Of a stretch of DNA of 64,000 nt, positions 39,742-64,000 are shown one piece after another. The notes under the pieces were generated by a model, which was not told the origin of the DNA, searched no databases, and was given only the letters and a program-made list of their open reading frames with translations. The stretch spans positions 68,619 to 132,618 of IMG/VR virus record IMGVR_UViG_3300025405_000011; one strand, written 5' to 3'. Every line of letters starts with the position of its first letter. Positions within the stretch are counted from its first letter, which is position 1. A program made the position numbers and the translations under genes. This stretch comes from a virus.

Positions 39742-39773
39742 ATTACTAAATTGACACTATTAGAGTTTTACAG

Positions 39774-39844
39774 TTCCGGGGCTAGGGCTCGAACCTAGAA
39801 TGACAGATTCAAAGTCTGTAGTGTTGCCATTACACTACCCCGGA
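39774..39844 (-). tRNA. tRNA-Gln (TTG), CCA not encoded
   Basis: TCCGGGG acceptor stem, anticodon arm ACAGA-CTTTGAA-TCTGT, T-loop TTCGAGC, trailer A-CTG. Confidence 0.93.
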
Positions 39845-39849
39845 TTGCC

Positions 39850-40608: not shown

Positions 40609-41291
40609 TATTTATAGCTCTTTTTCTTCCAACCAAGTCTACGATACCAGTCATGTGGCCCTTTTCTTTCATGATCTCTAGCTTCTCGTACTAGATTCTT
40701 GTCTTCTTTACTGACCCATTCTTCTCTCTTAAAAGGTATCACTTGAATAATTGGAGTACCTTTGGGTATTAACCCTTCAAACCCTTGCTTTAGATACCAG
40801 GGCACATTACCCCCAGGTATAGCAGCATCACCATCAATAATTGCACTTAGAGTATAGAATGGTAAATCAGTTCTATTTAAAGGGTGTGTATAGAGTGCAC
40901 TATAGCCATCGGGAAGTTTAATTGCTGCTCCATAAATCCAAGTAAAATGATAATCCTCATAGCCAGTAGGAGTAGGCATAGGGTCAGTCTGTAGACTGCT
41001 TCTAGCACCTATTCTACCGCTCTTAAATCTTATAATGGGCTCATTGTCTTCGTTTCTTTCAACTAGTATATCGGTCCATAGATTGATAGTATAGCCAGTT
41101 GTTAGTGAATCAAGAAAGGGTACACATGCTTTTACTGATAACTGTTCTTCATGTTCTCCAGAAATTATGACCTTACGAGGTATTTTTCTATACCAGTCTG
41201 GGGTATTTTTAACTGCAGGAGTAAACTCATCTGGAAAATGTTCACTGTGATAGAATACTATTTGTTTAGTGTTAGTTTCTTTTTTTGACAT
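40608..41291 (-). CDS. Conserved phage protein, possibly dUTPase-like beta fold (paralogue 2)
   Basis: Same motifs as its neighbour: KACVPFLD, HPLNRTDLPFYTL, GTPIIQVIPFKRE, WKKKSY. Confidence 0.6.
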   Translation of the reverse strand: MSKKETNTKQIVFYHSEHFPDEFTPAVKNTPDWYRKIPRKVIISGEHEEQLSVKACVPFLDSLTTGYTINLWTDILVERNEDNEPIIRFKSGRIGARSSLQTDPMPTPTGYEDYHFTWIYGAAIKLPDGYSALYTHPLNRTDLPFYTLSAIIDGDAAIPGGNVPWYLKQGFEGLIPKGTPIIQVIPFKREEWVSKEDKNLVREARDHERKGPHDWYRRLGWKKKSYK

Positions 41292-41292
41292 A

Positions 41293-41709
41293 CTAACCTA
41301 ACTCTCTCATAACTAGTTCTACTTCTTCATCTATAGTTAGCCCATCTTTAATGTGAACATTAACCATATTAGAAGGGTCTTGCCACATTAAGTTGGTATC
41401 TTCATATCTACCGGCCTTGATGCGATCTACCCATACTACTAGATCAGATTCTCCAAATGCTCTTCTAGTGTCTTCAGTAGGGCAAATAAAATCTACTACT
41501 ACATAGTAGTCTTGTTCTTTTAATAAACGAGCCATTCCACCCAAACGACGAGAATGTTCAATTCGATCTTCATGAGAGAAACCTAAATCATAATTGACAA
41601 AATCTCTTACCTGATCGGCATTAAGATGTATTGCTTTGATCTGCTCTGCTAGTGCTTGTGCAAGAGATGTCTTACCGGCTCCGGGCAGTCCAATAATTTG
41701 AATAATCAT
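41293..41709 (-). CDS. cysC: Adenylylsulfate (APS) kinase-like P-loop protein
   Basis: GLPGAGKT P-loop, LNADQVR..DLGFS.EDR.E..RR, DFICP. True start MIIQ at 41709 with AAGGAG RBS; the longer ORF-track start overlaps the tRNA. Shorter than canonical CysC. Confidence 0.7.
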   Translation of the reverse strand: MIIQIIGLPGAGKTSLAQALAEQIKAIHLNADQVRDFVNYDLGFSHEDRIEHSRRLGGMARLLKEQDYYVVVDFICPTEDTRRAFGESDLVVWVDRIKAGRYEDTNLMWQDPSNMVNVHIKDGLTIDEEVELVMRELG

Positions 41710-41726
41710 ATTGCTCCTTTTGACAG

Positions 41727-41798
41727 CTCCCTGGGATGGATTCGAACCACCGACCAAGTCATTAACAGTGACCCGCTCTGCCGCTGAGCTACCAGGGA
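41727..41798 (-). tRNA. tRNA-Asn (GTT), CCA not encoded
   Basis: TCCCTGG/CCAGGGA acceptor, anticodon loop CTGTTAA, T-loop TTCGAAT, trailer G-CTG. Confidence 0.93.
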
Positions 41799-41808
41799 AT
41801 AAAACTAT

Positions 41809-42420
41809 TTATGAATTTGAAAGAATTTGAGCCACAATTGGGTTGGGTATACCCTTGGGAGCTTCTGTCCAAGTTCTAGTGCCAAACTTAATTGGTTTGT
41901 TGTTAATATTCTCCATCATAGGACCTTTACAGATTGCAACTCTAAACTTAGTTCCATCGGTTGCAGTTAATGTTCTGGGCTCTACTACACAAGGAAAAGA
42001 CCATTGATTACTACTTCCACCACCAGGTGTTATAGTGTTTTTAAAGTTACGGTGTACCGGGGTCATATTGACCCAACTGCCATCGGTTTGCTTGATGGGG
42101 AAAGTACTAGGCACTCCAAACAATGACCATACTGTTGCAAATGTTCCGTCTGGAGTTAGTTTACTATTAGTAAGATCTAGATTAGCAAATGAAGCACCCG
42201 TAGTGATAATTGGGCACTCAGAAAGTCCTAGTCGATACCTAACACCATTAATAATAATGTGTTGATTAAGAGGTTTAGTGCCACTAGCAGCACAAAGTGC
42301 ATAAGGTAGATCATTATACTGCTTTAGTTTAATACCTGTACTTTTTGTAGAGATACCGACTGTAAATACTCCTACAGCAATAAGTATAACCGTAGCTATA
42401 GCAATTATTCTTTTTGACAT
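41809..42420 (-). CDS. Secreted/membrane-anchored Cys-containing protein of unknown function
   Basis: Start MSKRIIAIATVILIAVGVF (signal/TM) at 42420; four spaced Cys. Confidence 0.65.
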   Translation of the reverse strand: MSKRIIAIATVILIAVGVFTVGISTKSTGIKLKQYNDLPYALCAASGTKPLNQHIIINGVRYRLGLSECPIITTGASFANLDLTNSKLTPDGTFATVWSLFGVPSTFPIKQTDGSWVNMTPVHRNFKNTITPGGGSSNQWSFPCVVEPRTLTATDGTKFRVAICKGPMMENINNKPIKFGTRTWTEAPKGIPNPIVAQILSNS

Positions 42421-42440
42421 ATTGATTTCTTTCTTTAAAG

Positions 42441-42517
42441 TGGCGACCTTGATGGGACTTGAACCCACGACATCCAGCTTGACAAGCTGGCGCTCTAACC
42501 AACTGAGCTACAAGGCC
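42441..42517 (-). tRNA. tRNA-Asp (GTC), CCA encoded
   Basis: GGCCTTG acceptor, anticodon arm CCAGC-TTGTCAA-GCTGG, T-loop TTCAAGT, ends GCCA. Confidence 0.95.
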
Positions 42518-54037: not shown

Positions 54038-54412
54038 ATGAAGCGAGACATCAATACATCAGTGCAGTTGCGTGCTGGATCTTGTGGTATGGAGGTAGCA
54101 GAGCAACTAACTAAGGTTGATGCAGTACCATGTGTGGGCCTTGGTGCCTACTGGCTGGACTCCAGGACTCAGTTCCAGGACCACGAGGTAGTCATTAGGG
54201 ACATTGTAAGGTCACCCAAAGGCAAAGTCAACAACTATCTGTTGAGTTTCCGTGCAGTTGACCCCTACACCGCACAACCCGTTGGTGGCTGGATTGAGGC
54301 CAAGAGCAAGTACACTTGGAACCAACTCAACGGTCACTTTTACACCATGGCCTCGTTTGTGGCCTTGGTTGAACGCATCAATGAACGGACAGTTGAAAAC
54401 TTGATAAAGTGA
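54038..54412 (+). CDS. Hypothetical early protein
   Basis: RBS AAAGGGG, 124 aa. Confidence 0.7.
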   Translation: MKRDINTSVQLRAGSCGMEVAEQLTKVDAVPCVGLGAYWLDSRTQFQDHEVVIRDIVRSPKGKVNNYLLSFRAVDPYTAQPVGGWIEAKSKYTWNQLNGHFYTMASFVALVERINERTVENLIK

Positions 54413-54431
54413 TCAACTAGGCAATTGGTCG

Positions 54432-54461
54432 GGGTGGTGGTTGTTCGCGCAACCATCATCC
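54432..54461 (+). repeat. 12-bp intergenic hairpin, copy 1
   Basis: GGGTGGTGGTTG-TTCGCG-CAACCATCATCC, then ACTATG. Confidence 0.75.
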
Positions 54462-54534
54462 ACTATGTTCTGGTACAAAGCCAGGCAGAAGGTAGCCCAT
54501 GCCTCCCATGGGCACAACAACAAGGGAGATAACC

Positions 54535-55086
54535 GTGTCAATTGCTATTGATGGCGTTATTTACAAGGCAGCTGGAAGCCAGACGATTGCTCGTCAGGCC
54601 AACCAGAAGGGCATCAACTTGACCGCTGAGTTGGAGACAGCCACAGTCAGTAACCTGGTAACAGGTGAACTGTACTATTGGTTTGACTACAGCACACAGC
54701 GTGAGTTGAAGGCGCTTCAGTCAGACGAGACATACACTGATGGTGGTGTCTCTGTCCCTGAAGTATTCCAGTTGGCAGGCCAGCCGGCTGCACGCAAGAA
54801 GAGCATCATTGTGCCTCTTAACTTTGCACGTGTCAATGTTGCAGATGGATCACTAACATGGTTCACCAATGACGATGGCACACTCAAGGTGTACGAGCGC
54901 ACAGTGAAGCTCATTGCTGACCGTGCACGTGATTACTTCCGGAGCATTGCTGTTCTGCAGCGTGTGCTTGACACGGAAGTGGTGGACTCTGACAGTGGTT
55001 TGTCAGGTACATATGTCATGTTCGACACTGCCATGGGTACAGTGGGATCAATCACTGACGCTGAAGCAGAAGTCAGCACAAAGTAG
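54535..55086 (+). CDS. Hypothetical early protein
   Basis: GTG start at 54535 after AACAAGGGAG, 183 aa. Confidence 0.75.
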   Translation: MSIAIDGVIYKAAGSQTIARQANQKGINLTAELETATVSNLVTGELYYWFDYSTQRELKALQSDETYTDGGVSVPEVFQLAGQPAARKKSIIVPLNFARVNVADGSLTWFTNDDGTLKVYERTVKLIADRARDYFRSIAVLQRVLDTEVVDSDSGLSGTYVMFDTAMGTVGSITDAEAEVSTK

Positions 55087-55092
55087 TACAAA

Positions 55093-55123
55093 GCCATGGG
55101 ACGTTGTCATGACGTCTCATGGC
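55093..55123 (+). repeat. 12-bp intergenic hairpin, copy 2
   Basis: GCCATGGGACGT-TGTCATG-ACGTCTCATGGC, then CCTG. Confidence 0.7.
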
Positions 55124-55451
55124 CCTGGGACAGTGTGTGTGTTGCGGTGTGTTCGACACGCGGGCACATGTGTCATATTGTATGGAGACAATGGTAAGCA
55201 TTGCACTATACAAGCGTACATGTATTCATATGGACACTGTACAAACAGCAACCGTACACTGTACAGACAACAACCGTACAGACACACGTGTATCCATGGT
55301 ACAATATTCCAATGTGGCCATGTGTATGCGACACCATGATCAGTGGGTTCACTTCACCCTTTCGTGAGCTCATTCATCCGTTTCGCATACACATGAGCAT
55401 GCTGGGAAGCATCTGTTTGCAGTACAATCAAACAATAACAAGGGAGCAAAT

Positions 55452-55835
55452 ATGATACAAACATTGGTCAAGAGCCATTGTCAACATTGGACATGTGGTG
55501 GGCTAGAAGATGGGAATCCATTCCATTCACTCACTGCAGAACGTCATGTACATTTGTATCTCAATGCTGAGGTAGATGCCATGTTTGGTCTCTACACAGT
55601 GGAGAGTGGTACATTTGGCAATGAGTCTCAACCATGGAACATAAGCAATGGGATATTTGTGCCCTCCATAGTTCAGGCCCAGAACTTGTTCTTTTCAGCG
55701 GTCAAGATGTTGAGTGACAGCCGCAAGAGCAGTGTCAATGTCCATAACTTGGAGTGGTGCAAGACCCAAGAATATTTACAGTTGCTGAATGCAACCATTG
55801 ATTTACAGATGGCCATTCAAGCGTACAGACTGTAG
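55452..55835 (+). CDS. Hypothetical early protein
   Basis: AACAAGGGAG RBS, 127 aa. Confidence 0.7.
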   Translation: MIQTLVKSHCQHWTCGGLEDGNPFHSLTAERHVHLYLNAEVDAMFGLYTVESGTFGNESQPWNISNGIFVPSIVQAQNLFFSAVKMLSDSRKSSVNVHNLEWCKTQEYLQLLNATIDLQMAIQAYRL

Positions 55836-55841
55836 GTCAAT

Positions 55842-56012
55842 ATGTTTACATGGATCAATAAAAAGATAACATTGCGCCGCATTAGTATGGTGGATGAAAT
55901 CGAAGAACAAATCATTCTCAACTTGGGACGCAATGTTAAGATTGCTGAGCTCAAGCGTATAAATGATGCCTTTGAGCTGATCAGACAGGAACTATTGTTC
56001 TCGATCAGTTGA
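55842..56012 (+). CDS. Small hypothetical protein (56 aa)
   Basis: MFTWINKKITLRR...; follows the previous stop by 6 nt. Confidence 0.5.
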   Translation: MFTWINKKITLRRISMVDEIEEQIILNLGRNVKIAELKRINDAFELIRQELLFSIS

Positions 56013-56133
56013 AAGATGCAACCATTGAAGGTTGCATGGGATACATATGTAATTGATCTAATCAATGTCCCCCCAGGACACATATGTATCCCATGGGATC
56101 TTCAAAAATCCCAAACAAACAAGAAGGAGCACC

Positions 56134-56667
56134 ATGGATGCACTGCGAAAAATGTGTATTTGTGCTCTATTGACAATTGGTATACTAGTTCCATCTGTTG
56201 CGGGAGCAACTGACAAATGGAAAGTTCAAAATGGACATGTATATCAAGTTCAGACAGTGACTAAGTCCAACTTACACTGGTATAGTAACATTATGCCAAC
56301 AGTGGTTAAGAATGAATCACATGCTCTGATGCAATGGAACACAACTAGCACAGATGTAACAGCCACGTGGCCTGATGCAACTGACCCTACAAGAAAGTTA
56401 CCAATAAAAGCACAAGTAACATTTGCTTGTATTAGGTATCATGAAAGTAGAAATCATCTGACCAGTGTTGAGATACACTCTTATGCCGGTGGATGGTATC
56501 AGTTTATTCCATATATATGGAATTTTGCAAGAGGACACATACCTGGGCTACCAGCAAAACCCCAAATGGCTACAGCACATCAACAATCTGCTGTGGCTGT
56601 CTGGTATTACCAACGCAATCATGGTTTTTACCCAGAATGGGGTGGAGACATGAAAGTTTGTGGCTAA
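56134..56667 (+). CDS. Secreted Rpf-like lytic transglycosylase
   Basis: Signal peptide MDALRKMCICALLTIGILVPSVAGA; CIRYHES...GGWYQF...W...A....Q..VA...W motif; RBS AAGGAG. Confidence 0.7.
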   Translation: MDALRKMCICALLTIGILVPSVAGATDKWKVQNGHVYQVQTVTKSNLHWYSNIMPTVVKNESHALMQWNTTSTDVTATWPDATDPTRKLPIKAQVTFACIRYHESRNHLTSVEIHSYAGGWYQFIPYIWNFARGHIPGLPAKPQMATAHQQSAVAVWYYQRNHGFYPEWGGDMKVCG

Positions 56668-56670
56668 TGG

Positions 56671-56700
56671 AGGTGGTATGGAGTCAAATCCATACCATCT
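56671..56700 (+). repeat. 12-bp intergenic hairpin, copy 3
   Basis: AGGTGGTATGGA-GTCAAA-TCCATACCATCT, then ACTATG. Confidence 0.8.
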
Positions 56701-56734
56701 ACTATGCAGAAATGCATAATAACAAGGAGAATGT

Positions 56735-57241
56735 ATGAGTGACATGAATACACTAACCTGGTTTAGTGAGAGATGGTATGGTGAACCCAAATACAGATCT
56801 ACAAGGTATACAAATGCCAAAGTGGATCTTGGTTTTACCATACAAGAAGATGTCAAGGGTGATGTCTTTTTACAAATTAGATCAGTGAGGACAGGTAAAA
56901 AGAATGCTGACTGGGAAGTTGGTATTTTTAAATGTCTCAATGAAACTATGTCTTCTGCTAAAAAAGCCATTAAAAAAGCATGGGTGACTATGCAGAATTC
57001 TAGTGAAGATGAGATGAAATCATTCAATACCTTTTGGGATACATTGGTATCATATGGGTGGCTTCCAGCAATGGAGATGCCTTGCCATCATGGTATGATG
57101 TCAGTTTGTTTTTGTGGTAGAAAGGCAATTGCTTCATGGGCCACTACTCGTAGTACAATTCATCATACTACATTGAAGACAGTGTTGGAAGTTGAAGAAG
57201 AAAACAAGCTTGAACCATTGATCTTTGCATGGCCTGAGTGA
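56735..57241 (+). CDS. Hypothetical early protein
   Basis: AACAAGGAG RBS, 168 aa. Confidence 0.7.
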   Translation: MSDMNTLTWFSERWYGEPKYRSTRYTNAKVDLGFTIQEDVKGDVFLQIRSVRTGKKNADWEVGIFKCLNETMSSAKKAIKKAWVTMQNSSEDEMKSFNTFWDTLVSYGWLPAMEMPCHHGMMSVCFCGRKAIASWATTRSTIHHTTLKTVLEVEEENKLEPLIFAWPE

Positions 57242-57245
57242 TAAA

Positions 57246-57275
57246 GGATGGTATGGAGTCAAATTCATACCATCC
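57246..57275 (+). repeat. 12-bp intergenic hairpin, copy 4
   Basis: GGATGGTATGGA-GTCAAA-TTCATACCATCC, then ACTATG. Confidence 0.8.
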
Positions 57276-57341
57276 ACTATGTACTTGACAGTACAGAAGG
57301 TGATCATTGCCTACCAATGATAAATAACAAGGGAGATTAGT

Positions 57342-57773
57342 GTGAAAACTAACACTTCAATCCAATCAGCAACCGAACAGATTGACAAGGCACGTAACAA
57401 GGCCAGTCGAGTGCTTGGGGTGAAAGTTTCACGAGTGCAATTTCTGCACTTGGTGGACATTATCACTGGAGAATCTGTAGAGCCAACTGTAAAATCAGTT
57501 GAATCTCAGAGTTCAGGCACTGTTCAGGTTAAGAAGACACGTGCCAAGTACCCAACATTTGCTCGCCAACAGTGGGATGCAATGTTTGACTGGAATGTGT
57601 TAATGAATGGAGCAGTACACCAAATTGACTTGACTACTATTCCCAACACCAACTGGAACCGTTTTGTCCAGAAGTCATGGGGTATGGGTAAAAAGAATGG
57701 TCTTAAGGCAATTACACGCAAGACAGGTGCCAAGTCAGGCACAATTCAATATGTATTGCGTGAAGCACAGTAG
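57342..57773 (+). CDS. Hypothetical basic early protein
   Basis: GTG start after AACAAGGGAG, 143 aa. Confidence 0.7.
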   Translation: MKTNTSIQSATEQIDKARNKASRVLGVKVSRVQFLHLVDIITGESVEPTVKSVESQSSGTVQVKKTRAKYPTFARQQWDAMFDWNVLMNGAVHQIDLTTIPNTNWNRFVQKSWGMGKKNGLKAITRKTGAKSGTIQYVLREAQ

Positions 57774-57791
57774 TAAGTTGTAGTGTAGTAA

Positions 57792-57821
57792 GGTCAGTGG
57801 GGAGTCATGTCCCCATTGACC
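57792..57821 (+). repeat. 12-bp intergenic hairpin, copy 5
   Basis: GGTCAGTGGGGA-GTCATG-TCCCCATTGACC, then ACGATG. Confidence 0.8.
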
Positions 57822-57877
57822 ACGATGGAATTAATCGATCCATTGAAGTACAGTAGATTAATAACAAGGGAGATAAC

Positions 57878-58615
57878 ATGAGCGAGACAAGCTACATGGG
57901 TATGCCAATTCCAAAGTGCTATCAAACACTCAATAAGGTGTTTGAGGCTGGACTAGACCGTGTGATTCTATATGGTCCTCCAGGCACAGGCAAGACATAT
58001 GCTGGACTCACTAGCCATATTGGTGAGAGTCAATCATTCCGTCTTGTTTGCACTGAAGACATGACTTCTGCCGAAGTATCAGGTGCTTTTATGCCTAGTG
58101 CTGATGGTGGGTTTCATTGGATGGATGGCTTAGCCACTAAAGCATGGCGAACTGGTGGACGTTTGGTAATTGATGAGATTGACAAGGCAAGTGGAGATGT
58201 TTTTGCTCTACTATTGTCTTTCACTGACTCGATTGCTAGTGCTTCCCTGGACTTGCCTACTGGTGAAAGGATTGTTCCTGCACCTGGCTTCAGTGTGATT
58301 ATGACATCTAACATTGAACACCCTGATGAGCTTCCAGTTGCTCTTCGTGACCGATTTCCAGTTGCACTTAAGATTGATTCTGCACATCCTGCAGCATTAG
58401 TCCAATTGCCTGAGGAATTGCGTATGGTTGCTGCTACTATTGTAGCAAGTAAGCCTGGACGACGTGCTAGTTTGCGTGCTTTTTATGCATTCCAGCAATT
58501 GCGTCAAGTCATGGATGTGATGGAGGCAGCAGAGCAAATCTTTGGACCTAACTTGGCTTCCAGCATTGTTGATGCTGTGAAGATAGGTACAATGTCTATT
58601 GAAGTAACTCTGTAG
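57878..58615 (+). CDS. MoxR/CbbQ-type AAA+ ATPase
   Basis: Walker A GPPGTGKT, W.DG, Walker B LVIDEID, TSN, ALRDRF. Confidence 0.88.
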   Translation: MSETSYMGMPIPKCYQTLNKVFEAGLDRVILYGPPGTGKTYAGLTSHIGESQSFRLVCTEDMTSAEVSGAFMPSADGGFHWMDGLATKAWRTGGRLVIDEIDKASGDVFALLLSFTDSIASASLDLPTGERIVPAPGFSVIMTSNIEHPDELPVALRDRFPVALKIDSAHPAALVQLPEELRMVAATIVASKPGRRASLRAFYAFQQLRQVMDVMEAAEQIFGPNLASSIVDAVKIGTMSIEVTL

Positions 58616-58617
58616 TC

Positions 58618-60174
58618 ATGAGTATGTCTACTAATGATCGGAAGGACTCACCACCTTTACCAGAGGTAGTGGTGTCCTTCCGACAGGACATATCAGACCC
58701 TATTGATTGGGATGTTCGCAATACTCCAAGTTCATCTATGGGTGTTAACACTGACTTACTCAAAGGTCAAATGACGGTTCCGTTTTTTGATGATGAAGTT
58801 AGTCGGTTTGTTCGTGCACGAGAATTAACCAAGGCACGAATTACACCTATTGATACTAGAATATATGATGCTGTATGTTCTAGTTCCAGAGATGTTAAGC
58901 CACATGTGTTGGCTGCTGCTGAGAACTTGAGAATATCTAGTGTGACTACTAAACTTGAATATGATAACATTGCTCTTGTTAAGGGCAGTGAAAAGAATTT
59001 GGGTATGCAGTTAGCACAAGCGGGTACACCTGAAGCATGGGAGTTTGCTTTAGTGACTGCAATTGAGTTGATAGGCTCCAAAGCCTTTGACTCTTTTGCA
59101 TCTGGTATTCGGAGTGTAAAACCCGAATGGTCCAAGTCACTAAGGGGTATGGTAAAACATGTGAAGCCTCATCTAGAAATTGCATTGACTGTACTTAGTG
59201 ATACTGCACCCAGTCTTTATGACTTTAAAGGTGAACATATTAACTATCCAAGAGGTTTTAATACATCTATGAGATTAGCACAGATATTAGATCATTGGAG
59301 TGGTTATGGGCCAATGGTTCCAGATGATGTTGCTGAAGTAGTTCGTGAAGAAATGTTTGAAAAGGCCATGAGTTCTGATGGTGATTCTGATGATGATGGT
59401 GATGATGATGGTGATGATGCCCAAGGTGAATCTGCCTCAGGCAAAACCAAGCCTTTTGGTGAAGGTACACCTGACTACAAACTATCTGTTAAGAATGTAC
59501 CTGATGACTTTGAGTTTGATACTGGTGCTGCAGGACAATTTGCTGATTTACGTATTGATGATACTATGCCCTTGATCCAAGAGGTCAGTGGCTATCTACA
59601 TCGACGTAAGTCAGCAATGACTACTGGGCGTAGAGTATTGTACCCAAGCCGTTTGCTTACTGACCCTCAAAAGAGAATTTTTGGTAGCAAAGTGAGAGTG
59701 AAAGGTGGTATTGTAGTTGTTGATATCTCTGGATCTATGAGCTTGACTAATGAAAATATTGAGGACATTTTGACATCAGCACCTGCTGCTGTTATCTTGG
59801 CCTATTCTCAGAGAGAGTTAGATCAACCCAATGCTTGGATTTTGGCGTCTCGTGGACGTCGTGTAGATCCCAAGCATATTGGAGATATTGGTAGAGCAGG
59901 CAATGGTGTTGACGGACCTGCCTTAACATGGGCTATTCGCAAGCGTAAGCATGGTGAACCCATCATCTGGATTAGTGACGGAATGGTTACTAGTTCAAGT
60001 GATGGTTGGTCTGACGAGTTGTTCCTTGATTGTGTTAAGTTAGTCAAGAAGCACAAGATCATCTGCTATGCAGATACACCTACTGCAGTTAAGGCATTCA
60101 AGCGTGGTGTTCATAGGAGCAATCCTCCTCACATCATTCGTGAAGCTTTAATTACAGGCAAGAGTCCACGCTAG
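58618..60174 (+). CDS. VWA (MIDAS) domain protein, partner of the AAA ATPase
   Basis: VVVDISGSM and WISDG motifs; acidic DGDDD linker. Confidence 0.8.
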   Translation: MSMSTNDRKDSPPLPEVVVSFRQDISDPIDWDVRNTPSSSMGVNTDLLKGQMTVPFFDDEVSRFVRARELTKARITPIDTRIYDAVCSSSRDVKPHVLAAAENLRISSVTTKLEYDNIALVKGSEKNLGMQLAQAGTPEAWEFALVTAIELIGSKAFDSFASGIRSVKPEWSKSLRGMVKHVKPHLEIALTVLSDTAPSLYDFKGEHINYPRGFNTSMRLAQILDHWSGYGPMVPDDVAEVVREEMFEKAMSSDGDSDDDGDDDGDDAQGESASGKTKPFGEGTPDYKLSVKNVPDDFEFDTGAAGQFADLRIDDTMPLIQEVSGYLHRRKSAMTTGRRVLYPSRLLTDPQKRIFGSKVRVKGGIVVVDISGSMSLTNENIEDILTSAPAAVILAYSQRELDQPNAWILASRGRRVDPKHIGDIGRAGNGVDGPALTWAIRKRKHGEPIIWISDGMVTSSSDGWSDELFLDCVKLVKKHKIICYADTPTAVKAFKRGVHRSNPPHIIREALITGKSPR

Positions 60175-60180
60175 ACTCAA

Positions 60181-60210
60181 CCCCAGGTTGCCGTCATTGG
60201 TGACCTGGGG
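60181..60210 (+). repeat. 12-bp intergenic hairpin, copy 6
   Basis: CCCCAGGTTGCC-GTCATT-GGTGACCTGGGG, then ACTATG. Confidence 0.8.
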
Positions 60211-60524
60211 ACTATGTAGTTAATACATAACCCAAGTTGCTATGGGTTGTAACCACTTGTATATGAGTGCTCAAACATATACCCAATAGCCAGTATGAGG
60301 ACAACAATCTGGCCTACCATGGATAACTGTAGTAAACGAATCCACTATGTCCATGATGGTAAGGCACACTAAGAACCCATCAAAACTCATCATATGGGGA
60401 AGCATATGGGAGAAATTTCCAATCTCTGAGTGGAACTACCTGTTAGTGTAAGTTGTAGGTCAACTATCTATCTGTGGGTGTATTGACTCGTAACCCTCCA
60501 TCCTGAGTTGATGATAACTACTCA

Positions 60525-60554
60525 TCCCATAATGAGGTCAAACTTATTATGGGA
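60525..60554 (+). repeat. 12-bp hairpin, copy 7
   Basis: TCCCATAATGAG-GTCAAA-CTTATTATGGGA, then CCTATG. Confidence 0.8.
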
Positions 60555-60773
60555 CCTATGTGGCTAATAAGCCCACATACCCATGTCATGAGGGTAACAT
60601 GGCTATCTTGTAAGTGGGTGTATAGGAACTTTCACAGGATAATGGTCACTGTTAGCCTAACCCATTCAAGAGACAACTTGTAAAACAATCCAGTGTATTG
60701 GGAAAGCATACACAAACTAAGTCCTGGGTATGACTGAAACTACCCACTTAAACAACAATACAAGGGAGGGCAT

Positions 60774-61079
60774 ATGCCTGAATTTGACTTTAAACTAGAT
60801 GATGAAACCAAAATCAGAGCTGAGTTTGGTGACTTTATCATGTCTATACATGAATGGGCTAGTCATACTGCAGAAGTAACTGTAGGATTTCTTGCACTTT
60901 CAGAAGGATGGGAAGAGTTTCCAGGTGATGATGGAGATCGTAAGACATTTATCAAGTTTGGAACTCATGCTTTAATGCAGCAAATGAATGAATTAGTGGA
61001 TATTTTCCAGAAAGCTCACACTGCACTCTTTGGGGAACCATTAGAGCACAAGTGTGATGATCCAGATCACGATCACTAA
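60774..61079 (+). CDS. Hypothetical early protein
   Basis: AAGGGAGG RBS; His/Cys/Asp tail (HKCDDPDHDH). Confidence 0.7.
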   Translation: MPEFDFKLDDETKIRAEFGDFIMSIHEWASHTAEVTVGFLALSEGWEEFPGDDGDRKTFIKFGTHALMQQMNELVDIFQKAHTALFGEPLEHKCDDPDHDH

Positions 61080-61083
61080 TCAA

Positions 61084-61114
61084 ACCTCAGGTGGGTTCAT
61101 TGCCTGCCTGGGGT
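61084..61114 (+). repeat. 12-bp intergenic hairpin, copy 8
   Basis: ACCTCAGGTGGG-TTCATTG-CCTGCCTGGGGT, then GCTC and a TCCC-GAAA-GGGA hairpin. Confidence 0.75.
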
Positions 61115-61153
61115 GCTCCCGAAAGGGAAATTAAAACAAACAAGGGAGTAAAT

Positions 61154-61501
61154 ATGAAAGACAAGTTACCTGACCTACGTCAACTGTCTACTTATGAAGA
61201 AGCATTAGATCACATCTTCAAGTGCCATGGTGAAGAGGGCAAGAAAATTGCAACTGATGAAAATCAAGCACCATTTATGTGGCATGAGATAGTTGGACAT
61301 GGTCCTGATAATGACTCAGATCATGATCACTATGGAAATGCTATGGGTAATATATCAGAAATGATGGAACTGGTGAACAAAATTATTGAAGACCCAGAAT
61401 TCCGTGCAAAATTTGAAGCCCAATTGAGTAGTGAAGAGGCACTTGAGGCCAAGAAACGTATTGATGAAAAGACACGATCTTTGCTTGAAGGTGACAAATG
61501 A
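61154..61501 (+). CDS. Hypothetical His-rich early protein
   Basis: Start MKDKLP at 61154 after AACAAGGGAG. Confidence 0.7.
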   Translation: MKDKLPDLRQLSTYEEALDHIFKCHGEEGKKIATDENQAPFMWHEIVGHGPDNDSDHDHYGNAMGNISEMMELVNKIIEDPEFRAKFEAQLSSEEALEAKKRIDEKTRSLLEGDK

Positions 61502-61761
61502 TTATAGTCAAAGGTGTTCTATCTGAAAAACATTGGATAGATGTCTCATACTTTAATGATGAGTATTTGACTGTTAACTGCAAATGTAATGGTTGTGAAG
61601 TAAGTGAATCCTATCTTGTAGAACAAAGTCTATTTGACAAATGGGCTAAGGGTGCACTGCTTCAAGATGTCTTCCCATTACTAACTCCAGGGCAAAGAGA
61701 GATGTTAATCTCAGGTACCTGTGATGCATGTTGGGATAAAAAATGGGCTGACTTAGATTAG
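61498..61761 (+). CDS. Conserved-looking phage hypothetical protein with CxxC pairs
   Basis: W..GALLQDVFPLLT..QREMLISG.C..CWD; ATGA overlap. Confidence 0.7.
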   Translation: MIIVKGVLSEKHWIDVSYFNDEYLTVNCKCNGCEVSESYLVEQSLFDKWAKGALLQDVFPLLTPGQREMLISGTCDACWDKKWADLD

Positions 61762-61766
61762 TCCAA

Positions 61767-61797
61767 ACTCCAGTTGAATTCAAATTTCTTCTGGAGT
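61767..61797 (+). repeat. 12-bp intergenic hairpin, copy 9 (canonical T-loop)
   Basis: ACTCCAGTTGAA-TTCAAAT-TTCTTCTGGAGT (tandem U.U), then GCTC and a CCTCA-GAAA-TGAGG hairpin. Confidence 0.75.
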
Positions 61798-61849
61798 GCT
61801 CCTCAGAAATGAGGTATAATAAGTAATAACCAATAACAAGGGAGTAAGT

Positions 61850-62053
61850 ATGGATGAAGTAAAAGTAACAACTGAAAGTCTTAAAAAGTTACTTGATGAT
61901 GCCTATGCAATGTACATAAAAGCATCTGAGAGTTATCTTGAGACTTTGAAGTTAGCAAGTCAAAAAGCTGCTACTTTTGAACAAGTAAAAGTCATCTGGG
62001 AGCGAACTACAAAGCTATGCCAAGACTTTATTGACTTACAGGAAGGAGAGTAG
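61850..62053 (+). CDS. Small hypothetical protein
   Basis: AACAAGGGAG RBS, 67 aa. Confidence 0.65.
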   Translation: MDEVKVTTESLKKLLDDAYAMYIKASESYLETLKLASQKAATFEQVKVIWERTTKLCQDFIDLQEGE

Positions 62054-62208
62054 TGCCAACTATTGTTCAAGATGATGATAACCGCAGCCGTGAAGATTTG
62101 ATAGAAGAAATTCATAGCCTTAGATATGAAATGATTATGATGTCTGAGGAGAATAGTATTCTTTTTAACAAATTGAAGGCCATCCGTTCCATCCTTGAAA
62201 TAAGTTAA
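62053..62208 (+). CDS. Small hypothetical protein (51 aa)
   Basis: GTG overlapping the previous stop, AAGGAG upstream; MPTIVQDDDNRSRED... Confidence 0.55.
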   Translation: MPTIVQDDDNRSREDLIEEIHSLRYEMIMMSEENSILFNKLKAIRSILEIS

Positions 62209-62209
62209 G

Positions 62210-62395
62210 ATGGAGCAATTGGGAACTATCCTAAGTGACTACATGATGAACCTTAAGAACAAGGTTTTAAGGTTTGTTGACGGTGAACCACAAGTATGCC
62301 CGTCATGCGGTGGATATATAAGACAGGATGAAGAGATAACTGCCAACAGTAAGTATGAAAAGGCAGTTCATCTTCGTTGTGCCTATTGGAAGTAA
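62210..62395 (+). CDS. Small Zn-finger-like protein
   Basis: CPSC...H..C, 61 aa. Confidence 0.55.
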   Translation: MEQLGTILSDYMMNLKNKVLRFVDGEPQVCPSCGGYIRQDEEITANSKYEKAVHLRCAYWK

Positions 62396-62403
62396 TGTAG
62401 TAA

Positions 62404-62433
62404 ACCTCACATAGAGTCAAGTTTATGTGAGGT
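62404..62433 (+). repeat. 12-bp intergenic hairpin, copy 10
   Basis: ACCTCACATAGA-GTCAAG-TTTATGTGAGGT, then GCTC and a TCTC-GGAA-GAGA hairpin. Confidence 0.8.
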
Positions 62434-62466
62434 GCTCTCGGAAGAGATAAACAATTAAGGAGCAAT

Positions 62467-62829
62467 ATGAGTAAGCAAGATTATGGTACAGTGTTAGGTG
62501 CTGACATTCTCAAAAGTTTGGCCTATAAGGACATAACTGAAGTGAAGGTTGGTGACTTTGTTACCTTTATTGATGCTCGTCATCTTGGATTGCAGAAAGG
62601 CACAACTCGATACCACTATCGTGGAGAAGTAATTGAGATTAATGCCCTTAGTGCAACTCCAGTTAAGGCCAGACTACAAAAGTTTGACCCTGTTACTGGA
62701 GACAAGTTTGATGATAGTTTCACAGAAGAGTCATTTGCAGTCAATAGATGGGCTCCATATGAAACAGTTATTCGTGCATTCCGGACAACCCTTGCGGTTG
62801 CTGGAGCAATACACGAATCAGAGGAGTAA
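62467..62829 (+). CDS. Hypothetical protein (SH3/KOW-like beta pattern)
   Basis: VKVGDFVTF...RGEVIEI; AAGGAG RBS. Confidence 0.65.
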   Translation: MSKQDYGTVLGADILKSLAYKDITEVKVGDFVTFIDARHLGLQKGTTRYHYRGEVIEINALSATPVKARLQKFDPVTGDKFDDSFTEESFAVNRWAPYETVIRAFRTTLAVAGAIHESEE

Positions 62830-62836
62830 TCCTCAA

Positions 62837-62869
62837 TCCTGGTAATGGTTTGATGTTCTATTACCAGGA
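62837..62869 (+). repeat. 12-bp intergenic hairpin, copy 11 (deviant 9-nt loop)
   Basis: TCCTGGTAATGG-TTTGATGTT-CTATTACCAGGA, then ACTAG. Confidence 0.65.
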
Positions 62870-62937
62870 ACTAGCCTCCCTTGGTGAACTCCTGGGCAAG
62901 AGTGTAAACTACCCACTCAACAAGTAAGGAGAAAGTA

Positions 62938-63267
62938 ATGAATAAGACAGGATTAAACTTGGAAATTATTGGCAAAGATGGTAATGCTTTTAACATCTTG
63001 GCTATTGCTTCTAAAACTCTCAAACGAAATGGGATGTCATCTTTAGTTGATGAATTTATAACTGAAGCAACTAGTGGTGACTATGATCATTTGTTAATGA
63101 CTTGTATGGAATGGTTTAATGTAACTGGTGATGAAGAAATTGAAATAGATGACTTCGAAGTGGATCTAGATGCACAAGAACTATTATTATGTGAAGTATG
63201 TGGAGATTCTACAGACGGAACTGGTATTCTATGTGATGATTGTTTCGATAGTGAGATGAGTGAATAG
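62938..63267 (+). CDS. Conserved phage hypothetical protein plus C-terminal Zn finger
   Basis: GKDGNAFNIL...ATSGDYDHLL motif; CEVC..CDDC. Confidence 0.7.
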   Translation: MNKTGLNLEIIGKDGNAFNILAIASKTLKRNGMSSLVDEFITEATSGDYDHLLMTCMEWFNVTGDEEIEIDDFEVDLDAQELLLCEVCGDSTDGTGILCDDCFDSEMSE

Positions 63268-63281
63268 TAAGGGAGAATAGT

Positions 63282-63878
63282 ATGGCCAAGACAAAAAAGA
63301 TGATGCATCCAGAGTATCATGGTACATTTAATGGTTATAGTAACTATGGTTGTAGATGTGATCTTTGTAAACTTGCTGGTAGGGAATCTAATAAGATTCA
63401 AAAGGCCAAGAGAATAGCCAGACCCAAAGACGGAACTGAATGGTATCATGGTACAGTCAATGGTTATCGTAATTGGGGTTGTCGTTGTGAGCCTTGTCAT
63501 GAGGCATTTAAAATTGATCAACGAAAAGTTGCTGCTAGAAATAGAAAACGTCAAGGCTTTTTGACTCGTGAAGAAAAAAGACAAGTACAACTTGATATAC
63601 AAAATAAAGTTACACTAAGTGACTCCCATGGGACAGAATTGGGTATCCAAATGGGATGTAAGTGTAAGTTGTGTACTAACAAAAAAGCATCCATGAAAAG
63701 AATAGTAAGACTGAATACTCCCAAAACTGGACTTGAACCATGGCATGGTACACAAGTTGGTTATCAAGGTTGGGGTTGTCGTTGTGAAAGATGCTACAAA
63801 GCCAATAGCCACTATCGTAAGATACAATATGCGAATGGTGGTAATGGGGCTCATAAGTATAGACACAAAGACAAATAA
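63282..63878 (+). CDS. Basic protein with four HGT..GY..GC[RK]C..C repeats (putative Zn-binding DNA-binding protein)
   Basis: HGTFNGYSNYGCRCDLC, HGTVNGYRNWGCRCEPC, HGTELGIQMGCKCKLC, HGTQVGYQGWGCRCERC. Confidence 0.75.
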   Translation: MAKTKKMMHPEYHGTFNGYSNYGCRCDLCKLAGRESNKIQKAKRIARPKDGTEWYHGTVNGYRNWGCRCEPCHEAFKIDQRKVAARNRKRQGFLTREEKRQVQLDIQNKVTLSDSHGTELGIQMGCKCKLCTNKKASMKRIVRLNTPKTGLEPWHGTQVGYQGWGCRCERCYKANSHYRKIQYANGGNGAHKYRHKDK

Positions 63879-63908
63879 CTTCTTGTGGGCTCAATACCCA
63901 CTTGAAGT
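63878..63908 (+). repeat. 12-bp intergenic hairpin, copy 12
   Basis: ACTTCTTGTGGG-CTCAATA-CCCACTTGAAGT (tandem U.U), then GCTA and an ACTCT-GGGA-AGAGT hairpin. Confidence 0.75.
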
Positions 63909-63954
63909 GCTACTCTGGGAAGAGTTAAAATATACATAACAAGTAAGGAGAAAT

Positions 63955-64000
63955 ATGAAATATAGATTGGTTGACTATACTAGCTGTCGAGGTGACTTTA
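63955..64000 (+). CDS. Start of a gene running off the window
   Basis: AAGTAAGGAG RBS, then MKYRLVDYTSCRGDF. Confidence 0.55.
   Translation, partial: MKYRLVDYTSCRGDF

Follow-up and report, generated by a model that had tools for sequence, protein, structure and literature searches.

Hairpins between the genes of a phage early operon as candidate tRNA-derived processing signals

The twelve hairpins that punctuate the plus-strand early operon of this phage are, with a probability of roughly 0.55, the most reduced members of a tRNA-derived family of intercistronic RNAs, and would mark a long polycistronic early transcript for processing. They lie in a 64,000-nucleotide stretch of viral DNA (the window), and all twelve copies given in a preliminary description of this DNA were found again by reading and by a scan. 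Their coordinates, and those of the small second hairpins of their modules, are as follows.

54432..54461, plus strand: hairpin 1, 12 bp (2 G-U), loop TTCGCG, trailer ACTA; 20 nt past ORF end 54412
55093..55123, plus strand: hairpin 2, 12 bp, loop TGTCATG, trailer CCTG; 7 nt past ORF end 55086
56671..56700, plus strand: hairpin 3, 12 bp, loop GTCAAA, trailer ACTA; 4 nt past ORF end 56667
56703..56718, plus strand: module 3 second hairpin, 6 bp, GAAA loop; then ribosome-binding site and start codon 56735
57246..57275, plus strand: hairpin 4, 12 bp, loop GTCAAA, trailer ACTA
57280..57295, plus strand: module 4 second hairpin
57792..57821, plus strand: hairpin 5, 12 bp, loop GTCATG, trailer ACGA; upstream of AAA_5 ATPase gene
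57823..57845, plus strand: module 5 second hairpin
60181..60210, plus strand: hairpin 6, 12 bp, loop GTCATT, trailer ACTA; 7 nt past the end of a vWA-like gene
60213..60229, plus strand: module 6 second hairpin
60525..60554, plus strand: hairpin 7, 12 bp, loop GTCAAA, trailer CCTA; the sole copy without an ORF before it
60557..60579, plus strand: module 7 second hairpin
61084..61114, plus strand: hairpin 8, 12 bp (3 G-U), loop TTCATTG, trailer GCTC
61117..61128, plus strand: module 8 second hairpin, 4 bp, GAAA loop; its CTCCC could alternatively pair with the downstream Shine-Dalgarno sequence
61767..61797, plus strand: hairpin 9, 12 positions, tandem U.U, canonical 7-nt T-loop-type loop TTCAAAT, trailer GCTC
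61801..61814, plus strand: module 9 second hairpin, 5 bp, GAAA loop
62404..62433, plus strand: hairpin 10, 12 bp, loop GTCAAG, trailer GCTC
62436..62447, plus strand: module 10 second hairpin, 4 bp, GGAA loop
62837..62869, plus strand: hairpin 11, 12 bp, 9-nt loop, trailer ACTA
63878..63908, plus strand: hairpin 12, 12 positions, tandem U.U, loop CTCAATA, trailer GCTA; starts on the final base of the stop codon
63912..63925, plus strand: module 12 second hairpin, 5 bp, GGGA loop

Every stem has 12 positions, and ten of the twelve are fully paired by Watson-Crick or G-U pairs; the hairpins at 61767 and 63878 each contain two adjacent U.U. These features, the loops (GTCAAA three times, GTCATG, GTCATT, GTCAAG, TTCATTG, TTCAAAT, CTCAATA, TGTCATG, TTCGCG and one of 9 nt) and the N-C-T trailer of 11/12 copies, with ACGA in the remaining one, agree exactly with the preliminary description. 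So does the position of eleven copies, which begin 0-20 nt past the stop codon of a plus-strand ORF; the exception, at 60525, lies in an ORF-poor stretch. An ORF-poor stretch of 328 nt also lies downstream of hairpin 2. In the near-identical contig L088 the operon extends 4.4 kb beyond the window and carries three further copies, giving a set of 15. A 7-nt loop of the N-T-C-R-A-N-N (T-loop) type is present in only two of the 15, most loops having 6 nt, and T-C-R-A is retained in seven. Hairpins 3 and 4 are near-copies, and the module of hairpin 8 recurs identically at a different junction, as L088 6294.

The hairpins are neither random nor symmetrical between the strands. Perfect stems of at least 12 bp number 13 on the operon's plus strand, ten of them among the hairpins described earlier and three weaker and intragenic, and the same scan found none on the minus strand. 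In 200 dinucleotide shuffles such stems numbered 0.19 on average and two at most; elsewhere in the window, over 53.6 kb of sense strand, there is one. The non-standard pairs over the 15 copies are 19 G-U and 5 U.U with no A.C, and therefore the fold is specific to the transcribed strand, in line with the earlier view that the stem wobbles point to RNA. Paired cells account for 96.5% among the copies against 57.9% in shuffles; double changes occur at 12/12 pairs, and all 12 stem pairs covary among the copies. A covariance model, proposed as a check in the preliminary description, was built from seven copies and recovered the remaining five (E 0.0025-0.6); otherwise only the reverse strands of two copies fell below E 0.6 in the window.

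The spacing of the modules bears on how the operon is expressed. The distance from hairpin to next start codon is only 33-39 nt in three modules, and promoter-like sites were not enriched (30 vs 25.7 +/- 4.7 in shuffles); the downstream genes must therefore depend on read-through and not on re-initiation. The absence of a U-tract claimed earlier holds for 11/12 hairpins, but a consensus scan flagged the hairpin at 54432 as terminator-like.

We then compared the equivalent junctions of related phages, which carry elements of three types. Type A elements are full cloverleaf tRNA look-alikes with crippled anticodon arms (48-65 bits with the Rfam tRNA model, gathering score 29 bits), in which ARAGORN reads impossible or shifting 'anticodons' (23 of 54 loci gave 27 calls, every one on the sense strand). 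In the reduced type B elements the acceptor stem is accompanied by a mini D arm and a canonical T arm; their D stem, of 2-3 bp with a GG loop, covaries, and their T loop is invariant. Type C elements are either perfect acceptor plus T-arm minihelices or type II hammerhead ribozymes. An Rfam scan of 24 loci gave 19 sense-strand hammerhead II matches and none on the opposite strand, every match sitting between a stop codon and a ribosome-binding site, and in L153, L130, L140 and L156 the ribozyme lies immediately 5' of the AAA_5 gene. A detector for an acceptor stem, an insert and a T arm, applied to 160 loci and the genome, returned 211 sense-strand matches against 49 on the opposite strand, with insert lengths peaking at 0, 10, 13-14, 16, 18-19 and 38-42 nt. 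The window and the relatives have one architecture in common: element, unpaired purine, C, small second hairpin and ribosome-binding site.

At the AAA_5 junction, occupied in the window by hairpin 5, 88 distinct upstream sequences from 145 loci were compared. Under strict criteria they included 20 tRNA-like elements (10 of cloverleaf size, 10 reduced), three hammerheads and 17 plain hairpins, and 48 regions were without any recognised element. This junction displays a graded series from cloverleaf (e.g. L006 9078) through acceptor stem, 13-nt remnant and T arm (L002 5402) to the plain hairpin of the window. Orthologues of the genes behind hairpins 3, 5, 8, 10, 11 and 12, and behind the L088 7663 copy, are preceded in relatives by a hammerhead or a tRNA-like element. 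Hairpin 8 corresponds in position to a canonical minihelix at L089 8193, the outer 7 bp of hairpin 9 differ from the relatives' tRNA-like acceptor stem by one compensated pair, and hairpin 7 has counterparts that share its stem base in L006, L008, L009, L014 and L091.

These elements lend strong independent support to the suggestion that the minihelix look-alikes are candidate processing marks, but the strict code of 12 bp and a T loop is not conserved. Variation of stem length and loop in relatives, named in the preliminary description as speaking against such a code, was partly found: the counterparts of hairpin 6 behind the vWA-like gene have 11-18 bp and the trailer N-CCATG or N-CTATG, and in L091, the closest long relative, the helices have 13-14 bp throughout with TAAC/TCAC loops, so that T-loop identity and exactly 12 bp are dispensable. 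Loop type is genome-specific (GTCAAA-type here, YY-TAAC-RR in L091, TTCGTT-type in L006, L009 and L014), and the helix spans 30-32 nt in 41 of 63 unique family members. Given this variability and the two T-loop-type loops among 15, the '12 bp + TTCRANY' code is more plausibly a legacy of descent from a tRNA-like ancestor than a measure that is strictly kept.

The 3' context connects the hairpins with both the reduced elements and the tRNAs of this phage. The base after the unpaired one is C in 69 of 74 reduced elements and in all 15 hairpins, the unpaired base is a purine in 69/74 and 13/15, and N-C-[CT] is found in 54/74 and 13/15, respectively; the same two classes of trailer and second hairpin occur in both. 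As noted earlier, the CCA-less tRNAs for Gln (A-CTG) and Asn (G-CTG) have the trailer of the hairpins, and two more elsewhere in the genome end in A-CTT and T-CTG, so that the N-C-T trailer is present in 4/4. From the element types of the relatives, the common architecture and these tRNA trailers, we read the hairpins as probable relics of tRNA top halves in RNA-cutting slots.

Each module begins with a stop codon and a 12-bp helix, the latter probably made up of a 7-bp acceptor relic on a 5-bp T-stem relic with a decayed T loop. One unpaired base at the discriminator position, usually a purine, comes next, and after it C and, in most modules, U. A small second hairpin, whose loop is often of the GNRA type, is followed by an A-rich linker, the Shine-Dalgarno sequence and the start codon. 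A host tRNA-maturation endonuclease may cut at the helix, cleavage by host RNase Z and/or RNase P being the best reading. An acceptor plus T-arm minihelix is a minimal substrate of RNase P, RNase Z and the CCA-enzyme, and CCA-less tRNAs require RNase Z. The likeliest cut would be of the RNase Z type, directly 3' of the unpaired base, the same cut that the CCA-less tRNAs with an N-C-U trailer would need; RNase P might make a further cut, at the helix's 5' base. The upstream mRNA would then end in a stable 12-bp hairpin and the downstream mRNA begin with the second hairpin, and thus each mRNA, of one or a few genes, would be hairpin-capped at both ends. A type II hammerhead in the same slot of a relative would have the same outcome, leaving stem III on the upstream 3' end and stem I on the downstream 5' end.

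Several observations count against tRNA-type processing. The hairpins have no D-loop/T-loop elbow, which RNase P normally reads, and minihelices are poorer substrates than tRNAs. None of the 15 copies has a CCA trailer, few have a T-loop-type loop, hairpin 7 has no preceding ORF, and 48/88 AAA_5-junction regions lack recognised elements; the loops and 13-14-bp helices of L091 and the 11-18 bp behind the vWA-like gene are counted likewise. The invariant C also suits actinobacterial RNase E, and the same punctuation could rely on another enzyme: bare hairpins no longer recognised by tRNA enzymes might be cut by RNase E in the N|C linker, or the 12-bp helix might block 3' exonucleases, the mRNAs being hairpin-capped either way. 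We regard this as possible but rather unlikely. The operon contains a WhiB gene, which points to an actinobacterial host, and mycobacterial RNase E cuts directly 5' of cytidines (RN|CNU), its sites being more numerous between genes, according to PMC10641625. The loops here and in L091 are T loops no more, and L091 has the stable tetraloop-type caps expected of a stability element. However, apart from the C the copies match RN|CNU poorly (most have C or U at -2 and A or C at +3), 1-3 nt of linker is very little for an enzyme that recognises single-stranded RNA, and both the trailer common to the CCA-less tRNAs and the 30-32-nt helix spans are left unexplained.

It is very unlikely that the hairpins serve as transcription terminators, either partial or lacking a U-tract, which a phage antiterminator might override and which would grade expression of the early operon. 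They are stable (-16 to -23 kcal/mol) and lie directly behind stop codons, U-less terminators have reportedly been described in the early region of actinophage phiC31, and the put antiterminator RNAs of HK022 are two adjacent hairpins, much as the modules are two neighbouring hairpins one base apart. Yet 11/12 lack the U-tract that mycobacterial RNA polymerase is reported, in PMC3993855, to need, the 33-39-nt gaps leave no promoter room, so that efficient termination would silence downstream genes, and the replacement by hammerhead or tRNA-like elements at the same junctions goes unexplained. Sites for a phage RNA-binding protein or nuclease which reads the genome-specific loop, whether as translational repressor, as antiterminator or as a Cas6-like or RegB-like endonuclease, are very unlikely: loops alike within a genome and different between genomes are expected from co-evolution with a phage factor, but recent module duplication (hairpins 3/4; hairpin 8/L088 6294) explains the likeness equally well, and Pfam found no RNA-binding or nuclease domain in the 20 window and seven L088 ORFs scanned. 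DNA-level cassette boundaries at which early genes would more readily recombine and be shuffled, on the model of the PeSLs of T4-type phages or integron attC sites, seem highly improbable. The relatives are mosaic in the genes that lie between modules, identical modules stand at different junctions, and similar stems occur at non-orthologous junctions of different genomes; against this, the 19 G-U with no A.C and the lack of opposite-strand hairpins show that selection acts on the transcript and not on duplex or cruciform DNA, no enrichment of promoter-like sites was seen, and recombination may be a mere by-product of repeated modules.

Of this theme, the literature that we searched yielded only the hammerhead half: clustered hammerheads flanking phage genes were proposed, in PMC3088659, to cut long transcripts into gene-length mRNAs. 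Read as tRNA-derived processing signals, the hairpins would mark the points at which the long early message of this phage is divided into single-gene pieces, at junctions where related phages assign the cutting to full tRNA look-alikes or to self-cutting hammerhead RNAs.

Crude gene calling placed minus-strand genes at positions 120-122,225 of the 132,618-bp virus record, whose final 64 kb form the window, and a sole plus-strand block at genome 122,656-132,618 (window 54,038-64,000). This block houses all 12 hairpins, and reading of the sequence together with a mechanical scan confirmed the coordinates, stem, loop and trailer (the bases 3' of the helix) of every one listed in the preliminary description.

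Hairpins of the plus-strand operon (window start position, strand, identity)
54432, plus strand, hairpin 1
55093, plus strand, hairpin 2
56671, plus strand, hairpin 3
57246, plus strand, hairpin 4
57792, plus strand, hairpin 5, upstream of the AAA_5 ATPase gene
60181, plus strand, hairpin 6, after the vWA-like gene
60525, plus strand, hairpin 7, within an ORF-poor stretch
61084, plus strand, hairpin 8
61767, plus strand, hairpin 9
62404, plus strand, hairpin 10
62837, plus strand, hairpin 11
63878, plus strand, hairpin 12

Eleven of the 12 start 0-20 nt past a plus-strand stop codon, hairpin 7 being the exception. No hairpin occurs where genes overlap or abut (55835/55842, 58615/58618, 61501/61498, 62053/62053, 62208/62210 and 63267/63282), and the hairpins therefore bound units of one to three genes. 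The operon continues past the window in L088, a contig that matches genome 127,183-132,618 at 98.7% identity, runs through 4.4 kb absent from the record, and then joins genome 120-1,827. As L088 bridges the end and the start of the record, the record is incomplete and belongs to a circular or circularly permuted genome. The additional stretch (L088 5468-9902, past window position 64000) contains three further 12-position hairpins at L088 6294, 7026 and 7663, and encodes WhiB (PF02467, 44.3 bits), DUF3846 and DUF2786 genes; the WhiB gene points to an actinobacterial host.

Other features of the operon were recorded alongside. An ORF-poor stretch inside it, at window 55124-55451, carries many GTACA/ACATGT-type short repeats, and another at 60211-60773 holds hairpin 7 and other conserved hairpins that recur in five loci of related phages (L006, L008, L009, L014 and L091). 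Both stretches could have a regulatory function or give rise to non-coding RNAs. A 198-aa ORF at window 63282-63878 contains four H-G-T-x-x-G-Y-x-x-(W)-G-C-R-C-x-x-C-type repeats whose residue pattern appears to resemble a zinc ribbon, and Pfam returned nothing above threshold for this ORF.

We then asked how far the stems depart from chance. On the operon plus strand, 13 perfect stems of at least 12 bp were found (10 already described, and three weaker ones within genes), compared with 0 on the minus strand and, over 200 dinucleotide-shuffled sequences, an average of 0.19 (at most 2); the other 53.6 kb of the window gave one on the sense strand. The 12-position stem was present in all 15 copies (12 in the window, three in L088), 11 being paired throughout and four containing one or two U.U. 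Within the window, 10 of 12 stems are paired throughout by Watson-Crick or G-U pairs, and the two exceptions, 61767 and 63878, both contain a tandem U.U. A hand count from the scans gave 19 G-U, 5 U.U and 0 A.C over the 15 copies. A covariance model seeded on seven copies with 6-nt loops recovered the remaining five, and across the whole window (E <0.6) it matched, beyond the copies, only the reverse strands of two of them. In the model-fitted alignment (A5), which includes three stray rows (the two reverse-strand matches and an unrelated one at 39898), 96.5% of cells were paired compared with 57.9% when shuffled, and two-sided changes occurred at 12 of 12 pairs. The analysis shows that the hairpins sit between cistrons and that selection acts on the transcript.

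The loops agreed less well with a tRNA minihelix. The 7-nt T loop of such a minihelix (consensus T-T-C-R-A-N-N, closed by G-C) is not general here, and only 61767 and 63878 (2/15) have 7-nt loops of the form N-T-C-R-A-N-N. T-C-R-A is retained in 7 of 15 loops, the loop-closing pair is G-C in 5 of 12 window copies, and a CCA trailer was found in 0 of 15 hairpins. Pairing between a GTCAA loop and a downstream TTGAC was dropped as a general feature, being seen in module 4 alone. Rfam searches of the operon came back empty both with the gathering score and with E relaxed to 5, the tRNA family (RF00005) included, and no type II hammerhead (RF02276) was found on the window operon at E up to 5. Since this phage is without the ribozyme, any cut would need a host or phage enzyme.

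The bases 3' of the helix proved more constant. A purine occupies the unpaired base next to the helix (the discriminator position) in 13 of 15 copies, the next base is C in all 15, and the one after is T in 13. The trailer is followed by a small second hairpin (loop GAAA, GGAA or GGGA in five window modules), and then by an A-rich linker, an AAGGGAG-type Shine-Dalgarno sequence and the start codon. In three modules the helix lies 33-39 nt from the next start codon. Promoter-like sites numbered 30, compared with 25.7 +/- 4.7 in shuffles, and did not recur at the hairpins, in a simple sigma-70-type scan that actinobacterial promoters may escape. Given these short gaps and unenriched promoter-like sites, downstream genes must be reached by read-through past the hairpins. 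At hairpins 8 and 10, CTCCC/CTCT trailers are complementary to the downstream Shine-Dalgarno sequence (window 61115-61150 and 62434-62462), and RNAfold prefers this pairing over the local second hairpin; the predicted pairing could act as an anti-SD switch on translation of the next gene.

The phage's own tRNAs end in a similar way. The genome has seven true tRNAs, all on the minus strand, at window 39773-42517 and genome 6500-6750 and 40085-40156. N-C-T follows the acceptor stem in all four CCA-less tRNAs, bearing out the earlier remark that two of them have this trailer in common with the hairpins, and the other three carry N-CCA. The genome gave no match to a CCA-adding enzyme domain (PF01743), the record being only about 83% complete. 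On the phage genome, a detector built as [7-bp acceptor]-insert-[5-bp stem + T-loop consensus]-[acceptor 3' strand] found the true tRNAs (other strand) and two non-tRNA plus-strand sites, at genome 6313 and 108370.

Among deposited phages, megablast and tblastn found no close DNA or protein relatives, and a single-protein scan of viral contigs found no relatives. A later, alignment-based scan with the vWA-like protein beside the AAA_5 ATPase succeeded, gathering 160 related loci. In 23 of 54 loci, ARAGORN called 27 tRNA-shaped genes, all on the sense strand and 14 with unreadable anticodons, and the Rfam tRNA model scored 14 ARAGORN-called elements at 48-65 bits (gathering score 29). In the tRNA look-alikes immediately 5' of the AAA_5 gene, the slot occupied here by hairpin 5, the acceptor, D and T arms are normal, the anticodon-arm loops measure 3-5 nt, and the 'anticodons' vary among orthologues. 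At this junction 88 distinct upstream sequences, from 145 loci, were compared and their elements classified by strict criteria.

Elements at the AAA_5 junction in 88 distinct upstream sequences
Cloverleaf-size tRNA-like element: 10/88
Reduced tRNA-like element: 10/88
Hammerhead: 3/88
Plain hairpin: 17/88
None of these elements: 48/88

An intermediate form occupies this junction in L002, in which a 13-nt remnant separates the acceptor from a canonical T arm and G-C-C comes after the acceptor 3' strand. Across the 160 loci and the phage genome the detector matched 211 times on the sense strand versus 49 on the other, with insert lengths bunched at 0, 10, 13-14, 16, 18-19 and 38-42 nt. Reduced forms with a 16-19-nt insert have a covarying 2-3-bp D stem, a GG loop, an invariant T loop and no anticodon arm, and show compensatory changes at 12 of 14 predicted pairs; their scores stay below the gathering threshold of every Rfam family. 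In all, 74 unique reduced forms were present in the loci gathered. Anticodon-arm-less elements of 47-50 nt were seen in L004, L006, L014, L093, L103, L105, L109, L122, L124 and others (alignment A6). Zero-insert forms are perfect acceptor plus T-arm minihelices, such as that at L089 8193, upstream of the orthologue of the gene after hairpin 8, and canonical T loops are present in the relatives' minihelices (e.g., L089 8193 and L002 2871).

Trailers of the relatives' reduced elements and of the hairpins here
C next to the unpaired base: reduced elements 69/74; hairpins 15/15
Purine discriminator: reduced elements 69/74; hairpins 13/15
N-C-[CT]: reduced elements 54/74; hairpins 13/15

N-CCA was found in 8 of the 74 reduced elements. 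Two classes of trailer plus second hairpin are common to both sets, namely N-CTCCC with a GNRA-type loop and N-C[CT]A[CT]G, and cloverleaf, reduced and hairpin forms share one junction among the relatives, with a common trailer and second hairpin. The unpaired base and C between two hairpins is the junction common to the elements. Comparison with the relatives shows that the hairpins derive from tRNA-like elements.

Hammerheads occupy the same kind of position. At the gathering score, Rfam type II hammerheads numbered 19 on the sense strand versus 0 on the other (24 loci), and a looser hammerhead pattern gave 73 versus 2 (160 loci). They are placed between the stop codon and the ribosome-binding site. 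A type II hammerhead confirmed by Rfam lies immediately 5' of the AAA_5 gene in L153, L130, L140 and L156, and hammerheads occupy most junctions in L089 (10478-16555) and L153 (3901-14773), with 14 and about 17 pattern matches (4 and 6 above the Rfam gathering score); those before an MKYRL-type gene (L153, L140) were recognized by regular expression only and score below the gathering threshold. Orthologues of the genes after hairpins 3, 5, 8, 10, 11 and 12 and L088 7663 have a hammerhead or tRNA-like element upstream in relatives. The hairpin slots thus interchange with self-cleaving ribozymes among relatives.

The top half of a tRNA comprises 7 + 5 = 12 bp and a 7-nt loop, giving a span of 31 nt, and the 15 copies span 30-33 nt. 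In L091 (55% protein identity) there are more than 20 copies with spans of 31-32 nt, made up of 13-14 bp and 4-6-nt TAAC/TCAC-type loops. The junction hairpins of this closest long relative (L091 5560-20519) are capped by a conserved YY-TAAC/TCAC-RR apex, not a T loop, which we take to be a UMAC-like tetraloop. Compared with the window loops, these caps indicate that loops are uniform inside one genome and different between genomes. Covariance model R1, run on 80 loci with default filters, which lose hairpins this short, gave three weak matches only, and the relatives' hairpins were instead surveyed by descriptor scans. Trailer-anchored unique hairpins span 30-32 nt in 41 of 63 cases (125 G-U versus 2 A.C mismatches), a peak that arises only with, and depends on, this choice of hairpins; the span histogram of all post-stop hairpins pooled from the first 80 loci has no peak at 30-31. 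The 12-bp code proposed earlier therefore survives only in part: 12 positions are found in 15 of 15 copies, but counterparts of hairpin 6 after the vWA-like gene have 11-18 bp. Considering these lengths, those of L091 and the 30-33-nt spans, helix length is best explained as an inheritance from the tRNA top half, maintained by the need for pairing. A stem of exactly 12 bp is not strictly imposed, and the loops have drifted away from T-loop identity.

We propose, with a probability of roughly one half, that the early operon is punctuated at its at least 15 junctions: host RNase Z, RNase P or both would cut at bare remnants of the tRNA top half, with R-C-U as signal, yielding hairpin-capped mRNAs, and these remnants would be swappable with hammerheads. 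The transcript would be cut at the module, most likely by RNase Z just 3' of the unpaired base, so that the upstream mRNA would end, and the downstream mRNA begin, with a hairpin; RNase P may make a further cut where the stem starts on its 5' side. A type II hammerhead would produce the same geometry by cutting 3' of stem III and 5' of stem I, a position read from the Rfam matches on the basis of the hammerhead core layout. The relatives' series would run from cloverleaf through an elbow-only element without anticodon arm and a canonical minihelix to the bare hairpin. Free swapping of the elements with hammerheads among relatives would make punctuation by enzymes and punctuation by self-cleavage exchangeable within a single system. 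The R-C-U trailer common to the hairpins and the CCA-less tRNAs may be the cut and recognition signal. R73-C74-C75 of a tRNA pairs with the L15 loop of RNase P RNA, and a purine-C-pyrimidine trailer is compatible with this pairing. The invariant C is compatible also with actinobacterial RNase E, which, according to one study (PMC10641625), cuts 5' of C.

A role of the hairpins as transcription terminators is disfavoured, as only 1 of 12 passed the T-run criterion, the gaps to the next gene are short, and hammerheads exchange into the same slots. Sites for a phage-encoded binder would account for the genome-specific loops, but Pfam gave no candidate domain among 20 window ORFs and 7 L088 ORFs. 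DNA-level cassette boundaries would leave the asymmetry between G-U and A.C unexplained. Two phage precedents were rejected, PeSL-type promoter stem-loops because the required early promoter overlapping each stem-loop was not seen in the sigma-70-type scan, and the T7-type RNase III site (dsRNA of about two helical turns, in many cases interrupted by an internal loop) because the helices are only 12 bp; together with the 4-6-bp second hairpin they would provide 16-18 discontinuous bp. A T-run hairpin near L088 9060-9085 was dropped as a canonical terminator, not being flagged by the terminator scan.

Punctuation by tRNA-processing enzymes has counterparts elsewhere. In the mitochondrial tRNA-punctuation model, tRNAs in polycistronic transcripts mark processing sites. 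The t-elements of plant mitochondria are described as tRNA-like structures between or beside coding regions at which RNase P and RNase Z set mRNA 5'/3' ends (PMC1920247). The hairpins would be analogous to both in being tRNA-like structures within polycistronic transcripts, between coding regions. They differ from t-elements in belonging to a bacterial virus, in being bare 12-bp hairpins with a decayed T loop and a candidate cut site, and in being joined to a second hairpin and ribosome-binding site and exchangeable with hammerheads in relatives. Clustered type II hammerheads flank genes in prophages, and cutting into gene-length mRNAs was proposed for them by Perreault et al. (2011; PMC3088659); the arrangement there is likewise a structured RNA at nearly every gene junction of a phage operon. 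The hammerheads of our relatives occupy the very junctions where this phage, which has none, carries hairpins.

Like the minihelices and model hairpins on which RNase P, RNase Z and the CCA-adding enzyme act, the hairpins have 12 stacked bp and a capping loop, with an unpaired base and a C where a tRNA has its discriminator and C74. An RCCA-type 3' motif matters for RNase P cleavage of small substrates, according to one report (PMC12710915). The hairpins differ from minihelices in their mostly 6-nt loops, off the T-loop consensus, in a trailer that is R-C-U and not R-C-C-A, and in that the RNA continues. The tRNA-like domain of tmRNA has an acceptor stem, a T arm, a small D-loop remnant and no anticodon arm, a layout matched by the relatives' reduced elements with their GG D-loop remnant. 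Unlike tmRNA and armless tRNAs, our elements are embedded in mRNA, many per operon, with no sign of aminoacylation identity; the lack of CCA is a further difference, and the window copies are without even a D remnant. In MALAT1/mascRNA, RNase P and RNase Z define RNA ends at a tRNA-like structure to which they are recruited within a longer transcript; that system differs in being eukaryotic and nuclear, with one site per transcript and an upstream RNA shielded by a triple helix and not by the tRNA-like helix. Hairpins between phage early genes are found also in the actinophage phiC31, as terminators without a U-tract, and in T7, where upstream mRNAs owe their stability to the 3' hairpins that RNase III cleavage creates. 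In contrast to these, the present helices are too short at 12 bp for classical RNase III and are tRNA-derived, and termination misfits the short gaps.

A search of open-access main texts for phage operons punctuated by tRNA-like elements or minihelices, or for an exchange of such elements with hammerheads, returned only mitochondrial or plant cases and PMC3088659. Processing signals of tRNA-like form in organelles (PMC1920247) and MALAT1, and hammerhead arrays in phages (PMC3088659), are already known; the present case stands out by its 15 copies in one operon, its degree of reduction and the graded series among relatives. That series, at one junction, would be an unusually clear record of a structured RNA decaying while its role persists. 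If the proposal is true, it would reveal how far a tRNA can shrink and yet be read by RNase P or Z, and would bring in a large family of tRNA-like elements, covarying and anticodon-less, that Rfam lacks. It would also supply compact natural parts for splitting synthetic operons into separately stabilised mRNAs, and phage hammerhead arrays, long unexplained, would gain a tested function. Should the cut be real, actinobacterial phages would run early expression by RNA punctuation, through either ribozymes or the tRNA enzymes of the host.
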